Origin: Candidatus Curtissbacteria bacterium RIFCSPHIGHO2_12_FULL_41_17
GTDB taxonomy: Bacteria > Patescibacteriota > Microgenomatia > Curtissbacterales > GWA2-41-24
Length of the DNA stretch: 42,764 nucleotides
Direction: 5' to 3'
Assembly (NCBI GenBank): GCA_001774945.1
Contig: MFBL01000008.1
Location: forward strand, 9,310 to 52,073
Each line of letters starts with the position of its first letter. The first letter of the stretch is position 1. This document shows, one piece after another, positions 29,160 to 42,764 of this stretch. A model generated the notes under the pieces. It did not search any database. It had not been told where the DNA came from and saw only the letters and a program-made list of their open reading frames with translations. Made by a program: the position numbers and the translations under genes.

Positions 29160-29405
29160 TAAACTTCCGAGGACTAAGAGTCCTCGGCCTTGCCTGCCGG
29201 CAGGCAGGTTTTGTTCTCTAAGTTTTAGGCCCGCAGTCCTGAGTCCTGAGCCAGTCGAAGGATCGAAGGACGAGGACCGCATGGCACTGTATACAAGAGC
29301 GTAGAAAACCACACCTTACGTGTTTTTTTGGTATACTCTCGGAAGTATGTAATCGCATTTTTGCATTCATCCCCACTTTAAAAAAGTGGGGTTTTCTGCA
29401 AGCGA
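29160..29405 (+). mobile_element. Gene-less IS200/IS605-like miniature element carrying nested palindromes
   Basis: Left hairpin CCGAGGACT-AAG-AGTCCTCGG followed by CCTTG. Right hairpin TTCAT-CCCCACTTT-AAA-AAAGTGGGG-TTTTCTGC. Both resemble IS200/IS605 end structures from recalled consensus; no transposase ORF lies between them. Confidence 0.45.
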
Positions 29406-41255: not shown

Positions 41256-41331
41256 AGGAGAGGGGACTTGTCAACCAGAGCATGATCCGCCTTTGGTGGA
41301 AACCTCCGACCTCACCATCTCAAAAAGCGCT
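41256..41331 (-). repeat. Decayed copy of the tRNA-Pro 3' half with a 30-nt insert in the T-loop
   Basis: 41256-41270 matches 42061-42075 at 12/15 positions and 41301-41313 matches 42076-42088 at 13/13. They are separated by TCAACCAGAGCATGATCCGCCTTTGGTGGA. Confidence 0.75.
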
Positions 41332-41343
41332 TTTATAAATGCC

Positions 41344-41724
41344 TTATGTAGGAGTATTTAAAATTTTTATGTCATTCATAGGAAAATGTTTTATGTTGAG
41401 TGAAATGAGAGTAAGATTGTTCACATTTGCTGTTGCGGCTATTAAACAGTCTGTCAAGCTTAAATTTTTTAGTTGTTTTACGTATTGCTGCCAATACAAA
41501 CCCGCTTGTTTTGCAATAGATTTTGTCACATCCCACGTTAGAAATTCCTCCAAGACGCTTTCAGTTTTTAGCAATTCAGAAGGGTAAATATTTTTGTATA
41601 TTTCAGCTATAGTTACAGTGGATATCGAAAACGCGTTTTTGTCTTTTAAACTTTGTAAAAATTCTTCGTACTTTTCATTTCCTCGCAGAACCCAAATAAG
41701 AATATCTGTATCGATTAAATACAC
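41344..41724 (-). CDS. vapC: VapC-type PIN toxin
   Basis: YLIDTDILI, TIAEI, SLTDCLIAATA and LNIKHF motifs. Confidence 0.9.
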   Translation of the reverse strand: MYLIDTDILIWVLRGNEKYEEFLQSLKDKNAFSISTVTIAEIYKNIYPSELLKTESVLEEFLTWDVTKSIAKQAGLYWQQYVKQLKNLSLTDCLIAATANVNNLTLISLNIKHFPMNDIKILNTPT

Positions 41725-41726
41725 GC

Positions 41727-42005
41727 TTAAAAGCTACGGTCTGCGGCTTTTCTACCTCTTTGCACCCAATTGATTACATCTTTTTTTGTTCGCCATTCAG
41801 GATGATTTCTGGCCGCAAAAATACCGCTGGCCGCTTTAAGCGCTTTCCCAAATGCGTCGGGGCTAAACTTTTTCTTTACTTCAAGTTGAACTATTTGCTG
41901 GCCCTTTTTTTCATCTTTTAAAATAACCGTATGGCCTTTTTTAGCTTTCTCGATATAATCTGCAATATGCTGCCGAAATTGGCTTACAGATACAATAATA
42001 GTCAT
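41727..42005 (-). CDS. Phd/YefM family antitoxin
   Basis: IVSVSQFRQHIADYIEKAKKGHTVIL motif; 2 nt upstream of vapC. Confidence 0.85.
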   Translation of the reverse strand: MTIIVSVSQFRQHIADYIEKAKKGHTVILKDEKKGQQIVQLEVKKKFSPDAFGKALKAASGIFAARNHPEWRTKKDVINWVQRGRKAADRSF

Positions 42006-42011
42006 GTTTTA

Positions 42012-42040
42012 ATATTAGTACATTATGTACATATTGTCAA
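42012..42040 (-). promoter_or_regulatory. TA promoter with a palindromic operator
   Basis: TTGACA-N17-TAATAT with the ATG 6 nt downstream; GTACAT-T-ATGTAC at 42018-42030 in the spacer. Confidence 0.7.
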
Positions 42041-42057
42041 CCAGCTTTTTTAAGCTG

Positions 42058-42131
42058 TCGGGGAGAGAGGACTCGAACCTCCGACCTCTGCGTCCCAAAC
42101 GCAGCGCTCTAGCCAACTGAGCTACTCCCCG
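42058..42131 (-). tRNA. tRNA-Pro(TGG)
   Basis: CGGGGAGTAGCTCAGTTGGCTAGAGCG CTGCG-TTTGGGA-CGCAG AGGTC GGAGGTTCGAGTCCTCT CTCCCCG A. Confidence 0.96.
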
Positions 42132-42372
42132 TTAGTAATATTTTCTTTAAAGTATTAAAACCCTTATGAGTTTTAAAAAACTTCTCTCGTAACCTTGCAT
42201 CGATCTCCGCAGTAAATTCCTCTTTATAAATCAGCACAAACGGTCTTCTGCTCTTAGTCGATGGTACTTTTCCCGAATTATGTTCACTTATTCTTCTTTT
42301 TAAATTGTTAGTTGACCCGATATATCTTTTTTTATCTTTCTCGCTTTTCAAGATATAAAGGTACCATTTCAT
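42109..42372 (-). CDS. Small GIY-YIG nuclease family protein
   Basis: WYLYIL...YIGSTNNLKRRISEHNSG..STK.RRP..LIYKE...A..REK motifs. ATG at 42372; the stop codon lies inside tRNA-Pro. Confidence 0.9.
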   Translation of the reverse strand: MKWYLYILKSEKDKKRYIGSTNNLKRRISEHNSGKVPSTKSRRPFVLIYKEEFTAEIDARLREKFFKTHKGFNTLKKILLTGSSSVG

Positions 42373-42374
42373 TT

Positions 42375-42432
42375 GCGCTCTAGCCCCTGGGCCTTTGGCC
42401 CGAAGGGCCAGGGCCAACTGAGCTACTCCCCG
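42375..42432 (-). repeat. Copy of tRNA-Pro nt 1-28 with a 30-nt palindromic insert in the D-loop
   Basis: CGGGGAGTAGCTCAGTT-GGC-[CCTGGCCCTTCGGGCCAAAGGCCCAGG]-GGC-TAGAGCGC; the tRNA-derived parts are identical to tRNA-Pro. Confidence 0.9.
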
Positions 42433-42435
42433 CTA

Positions 42436-42693
42436 TTATATTCTCCAATAATTACGTCCGTGTCTTTGAGCCGCTGCTCTTATGCCGCTTTCTTTAATCC
42501 GAGTAATTACTTCGTCAGCAATCCTCTCCGAATCCGGAACTGGGGGTCTATCTATTCCACTATTAAATCCACCTGCCTTAGGGCAGCCTCCACAACCATT
42601 CTCTCTGATCGAATCAAAGAGTACCGGACACGTTGTCCTGCCTCCAGACGCTTTTACTAAATCTGGATTAATGCACAATCTGTCTTTGCCCAT
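42436..42693 (-). CDS. Small hypothetical Cys-containing protein
   Basis: 85-aa ORF between two tRNAs with C-x14-C-x11-CGGC; no SD seen. Confidence 0.4.
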   Translation of the reverse strand: MGKDRLCINPDLVKASGGRTTCPVLFDSIRENGCGGCPKAGGFNSGIDRPPVPDSERIADEVITRIKESGIRAAAQRHGRNYWRI

Positions 42694-42736: not shown

Positions 42737-42764
42737 TGGGCGGGGTGGGACTCGAACCCACACG
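42737..42764 (-). tRNA. 3' end of a tRNA truncated by the window edge, probably tRNA-Leu
   Basis: CGT-GTGGG-TTCGAGT-CCCAC-CCCGCCC-A; the anticodon is outside the window. Confidence 0.75.

Follow-up and report, generated by a model that had tools for sequence, protein, structure and literature searches.

Putative 30-nt hairpin mini-elements in the remnants of an older tRNA-Pro gene beside a GIY-YIG nuclease gene of an ultra-small bacterium

Introduction

Rickettsia palindromic elements (RPE), reportedly described by Ogata et al. in 2000 and 2002, are ~100 to 150 bp long, restricted to Rickettsia, and inserted in frame in protein genes and also in RNA genes; we know of no enzyme identified as mobilizing them. 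Genomic islands that target tRNA genes are bounded by attL/attR repeats of the 3' part of the tRNA. RPE are also mentioned in PMC1779305. REP and REPIN sequences are GC-rich hairpin repeats of 20 to 40 nucleotides (nt), which often occur as doublets and are thought to move as single-stranded DNA (ssDNA) with an enzyme supplied in trans (PMC3116915, PMC5581495, PMC3733652). Ssn proteins are single-domain GIY-YIG enzymes of ~90 amino acids (aa), whose genes are bordered by hairpin repeats of 20 to 50 nt (NTS/SRM) beside which they cut ssDNA; tRNA does not occur in the paper on these enzymes (PMC11893778). SegB of phage T4 is a free-standing GIY-YIG homing endonuclease encoded in a tRNA gene cluster (PMC2330249). 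Here, we analyze a tRNA-Pro locus in a stretch of 42,764 nt (the window) of Candidatus Curtissbacteria bacterium RIFCSPHIGHO2_12_FULL_41_17 (assembly GCA_001774945.1, contig MFBL01000008.1, positions 9,310 to 52,073), an ultra-small bacterium with a genome of 836 kb, 40% GC and 58 contigs (labeled G000 below; other genomes, contigs and loci carry G, C and L labels). At this locus, an intact tRNA-Pro gene, a gene for a single-domain GIY-YIG nuclease and a toxin-antitoxin pair lie between two tRNA-Pro fragments, each of which is interrupted by 30 nt.

We suggest, with a probability of roughly 0.6, that both are hairpin mini-elements, which inserted into the dead halves of an older tRNA-Pro gene. 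The insert in the T loop matches a family of paired 15-nt hairpins, here called E30, that occurs across the phylum and is apparently undescribed; we found no description of E30 or of the tRNA/GIY-YIG cassette in the published literature.

Results

Two inserts of 30 nt in tRNA-Pro fragments

Alignment to the tRNA bears out what a first-pass annotation of the window had seen, namely, inserts of 30 nt in the D loop and the T loop of the partial tRNA-Pro copies and a functional gene that is clean (Table 1). The D-loop insert is exactly 30 nt long, with a junction ambiguity of 3 nt (GGC) that places it between nt 17/18 and 20/21. The T-loop insert, again of exactly 30 nt, lies between T55 and C56, given an old T loop TTCAAGT as in the tRNA-Pro of locus L026 (genome G022); measured against the window's own tRNA, it amounts to 32 nt in place of CG. 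Both inserts are single-copy in the genome (836 kb). Their equal length is no coincidence: there is a repeat family whose members have a fixed length of 30 nt.

The D-loop insert shows strong self-complementarity and includes a perfect 15-nt hairpin, TGGCCC-TTC-GGGCCA, at 42396-42410. The T-loop insert comprises two 15-nt hairpins, TCAACC-AGA-GCATGA and TCCGCC-TTT-GGTGGA, of which the first has decayed, in canonical orientation on the + strand of the window. Both inserts had been called palindromic; self-complementarity and 15-nt hairpins support this description, but the T-loop hairpins are imperfect and the folding energies are not significantly better than those of shuffled sequences (z of -0.5 and -1.4 for the D-loop insert; overall range, -1.4 to +0.75).

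E30 consists of two adjacent 15-nt hairpins, each with a 6-bp stem and a 3-nt loop (consensus TCnnCC-ARA-GGnnGA followed by YCnnCC-TYT-GGnnGR). A second model of this family (R2), built from 47 copies with the window copy left out, recovers the T-loop insert (Table 1). By its sequence, the T-loop insert is, thus, a decayed E30 copy. On the D-loop insert, the E30 model yields a half-unit match of 9.8 bits (E of 0.75, E-values of such short models being rough). This insert is best described as a 30-nt composite of a related GC-hairpin type, a putative kinship based on its length, one 15-nt unit and its site. A GGCCC/GGGCC multi-arm hairpin similar to it lies in the D arm of the tRNA fragment beside L143, the locus of the nearest relative of the window nuclease; this likeness in style is suggestive only.

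Two other origins of the interrupted fragments were considered and rejected. The fragments are not chance matches: they share 20 and 13 nt exactly with the adjacent tRNA, and the same anatomy is found at four other GIY-YIG paralogues of G000 and at dozens of loci elsewhere. Nor do they form a split or intron-bearing tRNA: the host is bacterial (GreA, Alr), the fragments are devoid of a working anticodon arm and enclose a complete gene, and Rfam detects the intact gene only.

A family of paired 15-nt hairpins

The first-pass annotation had proposed a family of tiny hairpin elements, and such a family exists: a covariance model lists 83 distinct E30 sites in 24 of 41 relatives, and in a sample of 301 genomes from the whole phylum, 63 have the element. 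Some of these contain at least ten copies with the same score, an argument for recent bursts. The consensus of the 47 copies and their flanks has TC...GA ends, YY before and RA after the element, and neither GTAG nor CGTC. Most individual sites conform to these flanks, often with TTT before and GAYTT after E30, and some flanks resemble GAYTTT duplications. A generic scan for double hairpins of 15+15 nt gave no excess over shuffles (28 versus 17 to 23); the GC-rich class alone stands out.

In the cassettes at tRNA-Pro in G022, G017 and G016, one E30 lies at nt 12/13 and one at nt 17/18, in the same layout. The stems of the same-site copies at L026, L050 and L053 differ by compensatory changes and remain paired; counts of such pairs are partly circular, because pairing was required to find most copies. 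E30 is also conserved at orthologous sites between genera (C34:2034, L107 and L108 are equivalent). We rejected C34:2034 as an in-frame protein insertion, as its open frame of 103 aa is apparently noncoding; this site has no Rfam hit.

Hairpin families besides E30 also occur in the D loops of tRNA fragments, for instance, the 20-nt perfect palindrome CCTGCCTGCCGGCAGGCAGG. This palindrome has ~10 copies in G000 (window 29191-29210 and contigs C15, C17, C18, C20, C28, C31, C34 and C55), one of which is located in the D loop of the 5' piece of tRNA-Asn on C28. Elsewhere, a single hairpin unit of 15 to 17 nt replaces the stretch between loop hot spots, e.g., nt 38-55 of tRNA-Cys (L148 in G086:C33, L004, L027 and L015). 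From their sequences, these single-unit pseudo-copies look as if two inserted units had recombined and the intervening stretch had been deleted.

Sites of insertion

Site classes were assigned by inspection of ~51 E30 sites, ~17 of which lie in tRNA pseudo-copies, while tRNA-like DNA makes up well below 1% of these genomes. Eight sites are in the D loop at nt 17/18 (L026, L050, L053, L042, L092, L094, L099 and L112), three to four at nt 12/13 (L026, L050, L053 and probably L092), two in the anticodon loop (L006 and L112), and three in the T loop at nt 55/56 (the window and the tRNA-Val copies of L042 and L112). The hot-spot positions recur in tRNA-Pro, tRNA-Val and tRNA-Ser pseudo-copies of different genomes, and at L112, in a sister species, E30 has entered all three loops of one tRNA-Val pseudo-copy.

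In genes for conserved proteins, eight or more copies of E30 are inserted in frame. They are visible as gaps of 8 to 10 residues relative to the G000 orthologues, and the translated element reads S(A/S)KGG..SG(R/W) or SQPKAGRPLDE. These loci are L095, L096, L109, L130, L121, L113, L123 (a TopA-like Toprim region) and L103, with SAKGGSSSGR as an example. Several copies lie in the loops of other palindromes. We also observed E30 at the same site inside two full-length genes for transfer-messenger RNA (tmRNA; Rfam, 100 to 112 bits), at L114 (G001:C2:25248-25977) and L116 (G022:C39:4121-4850).

These sites qualify what had been proposed from the window. The scan for loop-interrupted tRNA fragments in relatives, suggested at the time, finds the D-loop and T-loop sites again, and the recurrent hot spots support a targeting of conserved tRNA loops; however, insertion extends to protein genes, tmRNA and the loops of other palindromes. 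Similarly, survival in redundant copies only holds for tRNA genes but not for E30 as a whole, given its in-frame copies in protein genes and its copies in tmRNA.

History and anatomy of the tRNA-Pro locus

The two fragments had been taken for two partial copies of tRNA-Pro. Comparison with related loci replaces this view. At the level of sequence, they are shown to be the two ends of a single older tRNA-Pro gene. This gene was interrupted twice, in nested fashion: its 3' side received a toxin-antitoxin islet, and its 5' side received a GIY-YIG cassette.

The islet is a Phd-VapC pair with 74 to 76% DNA identity between genomes (74% between the window and L026), which follows ftsZ in G001, G012, G015 and G017 and lies beside tRNA-Pro in G000, G022 and G011. 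In G011, which has no nuclease gene at this locus, the tRNA lies on one side of the pair and an exact repeat of nt 24-76 on the other. At L026 in G022, the order is nt 1-28 of tRNA-Pro with two E30 copies, the GIY-YIG gene, the intact tRNA, the Phd-VapC pair and nt 21-76 of the old tRNA; this displaced part comes from a different tRNA-Pro allele and its T loop is clean. This comparison shows that the islet entered tRNA-Pro, left a working tRNA in place, and displaced the old 3' part (nt ~22-76) by 0.8 kb downstream. In the window, this remnant (41333-41257) reads AAAGCGC, a decayed anticodon arm, GAGGTCGGAGGTT, the 30-nt insert and CAAGTCCCCTCTCC; its part ahead of the insert takes in the variable region and the 5' strand of the T stem. 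Beginning at ~41333, the remnant is longer than was seen before. Its nt 56-69 have one mismatch in the 3' strand of the T stem, and the final 4 nt of the acceptor are gone.

On the 5' side, a GIY-YIG gene occupies the slot between the 5' duplicate and the working tRNA in G022, G016 and G017 as well. In the window, the nuclease gene starts with ATG 2 nt past nt 21-28 of the 5' fragment and ends with the TAG at nt 21-23 of the intact tRNA. The ATG at +2 follows GCGC in the window, at L026 and at L053 (G016), where the motif is GTGC; in G017, the fragment is shorter and the sequence is GGCTA + AGT + ATG. The comparison thus shows that a minimal GIY-YIG gene fills the slot between the 5' duplicate (nt 1-28) and the working tRNA and uses a stop codon supplied by the tRNA. 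Because the window nuclease is only 38% identical to that of L026 (G022) and falls outside the tRNA-Pro(UGG) clade, the ORF (open reading frame) in the slot must have been exchanged between lineages, presumably by recombination through the identical tRNA sequences on either side.

A second case in the same genome has a comparable layout. On contig C28, the 5' and 3' pieces of one tRNA-Asn allele, with mutually pairing acceptor strands (TCCCCGG/CCGGGGA), enclose a GIY-YIG gene and a complete tRNA-Asn of a different, foreign allele. Therefore, these fragments are the two ends of a resident gene split by an insert that brought its replacement tRNA. At L053 (G016:C39) and L043 (G023:C21), an intact tRNA-Pro lies inside the loop of a long hairpin (CCCGCCTGACTTG..tRNA..CAAGTCA..GGCAGGG), and the hairpin in turn interrupts an older tRNA-Pro, located downstream of a GIY-YIG gene, at 36/37 in its anticodon loop. 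Two genera share this insert. Judged from this layout, the two loci are nested invasions of a tRNA by a tRNA.

Table 1. Features of the tRNA-Pro locus, with positions in the window
Feature	Position	Strand	Basis
tRNA-Pro 5' fragment, nt 1-20 (acceptor 5' strand, D stem 5' strand, start of D loop)	42413..42432	-	20/20 identity with intact gene
GC-rich composite hairpin insert in D loop, 30 nt	42383..42412	-	Alignment to tRNA; unique in genome
tRNA-Pro 5' fragment continued, nt 21-28 (TAGAGCGC)	42375..42382	-	100% identity with intact gene
GIY-YIG single-domain nuclease gene, 87 aa	42109..42372	-	PF01541, E=8.6e-18, residues 2-73
Intact tRNA-Pro(UGG)	42057..42131	-	ARAGORN; Rfam RF00005, 68.8 bits
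Promoter-like site of toxin-antitoxin pair (TTGACA, 17 nt, TAATAT) with internal palindrome	42012..42040	-	Kept in L026
Phd/YefM-like antitoxin gene, 92 aa	41727..42005	-	PF02604, E=2.7e-5; TIGR01552
VapC (PIN-domain) toxin gene, 126 aa	41344..41724	-	PF01850, E=6e-14; VapC NCBIfam models
Displaced 3' part of older tRNA-Pro, nt ~22-55	41301..41333	-	GAGGTCGGAGGTT 13/13; anticodon arm 13/17 versus L026 fragment
E30 copy between T55 and C56 of old T loop, 30 nt	41271..41300	+	Model R2 without this copy: 25.3 bits, E=9.2e-5 over the window (rough, short model)
Older tRNA-Pro, nt 56-69 (rest of T loop, T stem 3' strand, part of acceptor 3' strand)	41257..41270	-	Alignment to tRNA

The intact gene is the sole UGG isoacceptor gene of tRNA-Pro found in the assembly. 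A TATAAT hexamer, found by eye in the sequence, ends 3 nt upstream of the 5' fragment; a simple promoter scan called no sigma-70 site upstream of this fragment. Between the 5' fragment and the next tRNA lies an ORF of 85 aa (42436-42693, minus strand) without a Pfam or NCBIfam match. This ORF may be a further insertion, because tRNA-Leu(UAA) directly precedes the tRNA-Pro locus in relatives. The window and the contig terminate inside the 3' end of another tRNA gene (42739-42764, minus strand; GGGTTCGAGTCCCACCCCGCCCAC), which is consistent with an assembly break at a repeated tRNA sequence.

The GIY-YIG cassette

The window nuclease belongs to a widespread cassette. A tRNA lies within 400 nt at 67 of 94 homologous loci from 35 related genomes, and all 88 of 88 neighboring tRNAs are on the same strand. 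Other GIY-YIG paralogues of the window genome have the same layout of tRNA fragments, and the nearest phylum-wide relatives of the nuclease (52 to 58% identity) have the same anatomy at tRNA-Lys, -Val, -Thr, -Leu, -Gln, -Cys and -Ser. In most cassettes, hairpins lie upstream of the nuclease gene and the downstream neighbor is usually a tRNA; L024 and L080 have inverted hairpins on both sides. Residues Y6, Y17, G19, R27, H31 and E63 are conserved in 84 to 90 of 90 homologues, and 4 of 94 ORFs are broken. The best sequence matches in the PDB are the UPF0213 proteins 1ywl and 1zg2.

At ~20 of the 48 loci with a downstream tRNA, the nuclease ORF runs into the tRNA and stops there; in eleven cases, the stop codon is a TAG provided by the invariant bases U8-A9-G10. 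GIY-YIG ORFs without a stop codon of their own include those of L026, L035, L044, L050, L051, L056, L058, L059, L079, L087 and L089. Because of the stop codons inside tRNAs, the nuclease ORF is probably co-transcribed with the tRNA. As suggested by the shared stop codon, cleavage by RNase P at the 5' end of the tRNA would then yield a nonstop nuclease mRNA, thereby tying nuclease expression to the unprocessed precursor.

Clustering of the GIY-YIG proteins follows the identity of the neighboring tRNA, with 32 label changes as opposed to 46.9 on average, and never fewer than 41, in 300 shuffles. By genome, no such clustering is seen (74 label changes versus 74.8 in shuffles).

G000 also encodes further Ssn-like GIY-YIG paralogues (C1:6659-6859, C38:10669-10872 and C23:10141-10338), none of which lies beside a tRNA. 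They are flanked by repeats of the GTCATTGCGAG/AGATTGCTTCG type or, on C23, by 60-nt direct repeats. On contig C49 of this genome, a tmRNA-like 3' end (..TCCCGCCATCTCCACCA) is duplicated on both sides of a GIY-YIG gene; ARAGORN found no tmRNA in G000.

Discussion

Here, we identify two 30-nt inserts in the remains of an older tRNA-Pro gene as probable hairpin mini-elements. We suggest that the insertion of these elements is precise and costs no target bases, that it mostly occurs directly 3' of TT, and that its targets are unpaired loops in DNA with the capacity to form hairpins. tRNA genes would then be hot spots at nt 17/18, 33-36 and 55/56 because the elements target unpaired loops of foldable DNA, and inserts would be confined to spare fragments because insertion in a working tRNA would be lethal. 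Moreover, interrupted fragments might be favored, in that an insert breaks the direct tRNA repeats that otherwise permit deletion of the cassette by recombination.

Several observations weigh against this scenario. Loop targeting is deduced from the tRNA-context sites together with the hairpin-loop sites, whereas many sites in protein genes have no obvious hairpin host. Many E30 copies are old, and present-day mobility is indicated indirectly, by the copies of identical score in some genomes. The D-loop insert was rejected as an E30 copy, as neither model supports it and no similar copy is present in 150 loci or in the genome. Finally, the assembly is a fragmented metagenome-assembled genome, and the locus lies 330 nt from the contig end.

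Which activity moves E30 is a separate matter, for which we regard the GIY-YIG nuclease as the leading candidate. In its specific form, the proposal is that the neighboring nuclease cuts single-stranded loops of folded tRNA-gene DNA and that repair installs hairpins there, in a manner resembling Ssn/NTS or RAYT/REP; on present evidence, this mechanism is a tentative suggestion and on balance unlikely. The catalytic residues are conserved, and E30 is found near the gene far more often than expected: 11 of the 83 listed sites, at seven loci, lie within 1 kb of a GIY-YIG gene, compared with ~0.7% expected, at distances of up to 110 nt at six loci and of 811 nt for the T-loop copy of the window. 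By contrast, none lies within 1 kb of any of ~95 matches to PF01797 (Y1), the closest being 1.5 to 2.3 kb away. Across the phylum, the nuclease is present in 52 of 63 E30-positive but in only 105 of 238 E30-negative genomes (odds ratio [OR] of 6.0, p=3e-8, uncorrected for phylogeny), and this association persists when the 301 genomes are stratified by Y1. The hairpin type also seems linked to the nuclease lineage, with E30 beside the tRNA-Pro(UGG) clade of L026, L050 and L053 and beside L042, and GGCCC/GGGCC hairpins beside the window nuclease and L143. The co-occurrence expected in the first-pass annotation is, thus, seen phylum-wide and in the proximity at these loci, but it vanishes within the family of 41 genomes (rho of 0.19, p=0.23; Fisher OR of 1.07; also uncorrected for phylogeny). 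Other observations are similarly difficult to reconcile with a nuclease-driven mechanism. G023, G025 and G036 have six to eight nuclease genes and no E30, while G265 and G043 are rich in E30 and have no match to this nuclease; E30-bearing tRNA pseudo-copies occur without a GIY-YIG ORF (L112, L094 and L099); and ~87% of the listed sites are away from any GIY-YIG gene. GIY-YIG enzymes hydrolyze DNA and do not rejoin it, so that extra factors would be needed. A precedent for part of this mechanism is provided by the single-domain Ssn enzymes, which cut ssDNA beside the hairpin repeats flanking their genes (PMC11893778). A wider idea is that the minimal GIY-YIG nucleases embedded at tRNAs have the 15-nt units, both of E30 and of its GC-rich relatives, as their cognate DNA partners. 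They would make up a transposase-free mobile system of a kind not recognized before, in which a nuclease of ~85 aa reads single-stranded folded loops (the D, anticodon and T loops of tRNAs and the tips of other hairpins) and repair installs 30-nt modules at them; we consider this doubtful.

E30 might instead be a minimal derivative of the IS200/IS605 type (REP/PATE-like) that is moved in trans by RAYT-like Y1 transposases, with the GIY-YIG nuclease merely making the dead tRNA fragments that tolerate it. Its two hairpins, its precise insertion without target loss or clear duplication, its short T-rich motif and its apparent preference for single-stranded loops fit the chemistry of Y1/HUH enzymes, which is established for IS608 and ISDra2. 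PF01797 genes of ~200 to 260 aa occur in 31 of 41 relatives, including two in G000, their counts track those of E30 both in the family (rho of 0.36, p=0.02) and in the phylum (OR of 4.0, p=3e-6), and three genes of one subgroup lie 1.5 to 2.3 kb from an E30 (G010, G004 and G015). Nevertheless, these correlations ignore phylogeny and fall below those for GIY-YIG, E30-rich genomes without a Y1 match exist (G331, G047 and G080), and, unlike REPs, which normally border their RAYT gene, E30 flanks none of the Y1 genes. E30 also has neither the GTAG nor the CGTC tag of the REP superfamilies (PMC3733652). Altogether, we find this explanation improbable. The RAYT-like Y1 homologues of G000 are at C44:2168-2428 and C27:9920-10144, and relatives have up to eight copies per genome.

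That the hairpins are not mobile DNA at all but functional parts of the cassette transcript, maintained by selection at the RNA level as stabilizers of the 5' untranslated region or as blocks to processing that keep the tRNA fragment from being folded and cleaved, would account for the layout shared by L026, L050 and L053 with stems that differ and yet pair, for the G-U pairs on the sense strand of the second module of L026, and for the position of the hairpins in the leader of a nuclease ORF that is itself probably co-transcribed with the tRNA. Such a role is very unlikely for a 30-nt module that occurs in both orientations, in protein genes and tmRNA and distant from cassettes, and that has many copies of identical score in some genomes; in the window, the T-loop copy is antisense, decaying and 0.8 kb downstream of the nuclease gene.

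If hairpin mini-elements did land in the dead tRNA halves, a phylum of ultra-small bacteria would hold a 30-nt element that can enter tRNA pseudo-copies, tmRNA and essential proteins and leave them unbroken; in protein genes, it would be tolerated because 30 nt equals ten codons. It would be a compact natural case of structure-targeted insertion, and the hot spots at nt 17/18 and 55/56 offer concrete substrates for biochemistry. The tRNA loci would archive nested invasions of tRNA within tRNA, with a nuclease gene or toxin-antitoxin genes as cargo. These findings bear on gene flow in organisms poor in classical mobile elements, on annotation pipelines that miss or miscall tRNA and tmRNA genes in these genomes, and on the role of the very common stand-alone GIY-YIG proteins. 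Should the nuclease and the hairpins form one system, E30 would rank with the smallest known units of mobile DNA, and tRNA genes would be universal landing and homology sites for the spread of cassettes between distantly related ultra-small bacteria.

The locus shares traits with several described systems. Like an island in a tRNA gene, the toxin-antitoxin islet is bounded by a working tRNA and a displaced 3' copy (41257-41333 in the window, also at L026, and exact in G011). It differs in spanning 0.8 kb and in being integrase-free, since no tyrosine or serine integrase gene was found between the repeats, only phd, vapC and the GIY-YIG gene, and a mirror-image 5' duplication holds the nuclease gene. 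As in the case of SegB, the GIY-YIG gene lies among tRNA genes and is co-inherited with them, and, as for homing endonucleases, the nuclease lineage is tied to one tRNA target across genomes. However, SegB is a multidomain phage enzyme that acts in co-infection and has no duplicated tRNA fragment, hairpin module or stop codon borrowed from a tRNA, whereas the window nuclease is one 87-aa domain without a C-terminal DNA-binding domain (TIGR01453, 22.8 bits versus a cut-off of 56). With Ssn, it shares the single GIY-YIG domain, the conserved catalytic residues and a hairpin at the gene border; by contrast, its best matches of solved structure are UPF0213 proteins rather than Ssn, and its downstream neighbor is a working tRNA instead of a second repeat.

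For E30 itself, the comparison is with repeats. Its two-hairpin layout and its preference for a preceding YY would fit PATE derived from IS200/IS605, which insert without target duplication; some E30 flanks resemble GAYTTT duplications, and Y1 genes are present in the genomes. Like REP and REPIN, E30 is a short, multicopy, imperfect palindrome (2 x 15 nt), but it is tag-less, is not extragenic and does not flank Y1 genes, and its hairpins are adjacent rather than an inverted pair folding as one long hairpin as in REPIN. The closest match in behavior is RPE, which are likewise palindromic, inserted in frame in protein genes and in RNA genes, and persistent; relative to these, E30 is distinguished by its length of 30 nt, its two side-by-side 15-nt hairpins, its phylum-wide distribution and its hot spots in tRNA loops.

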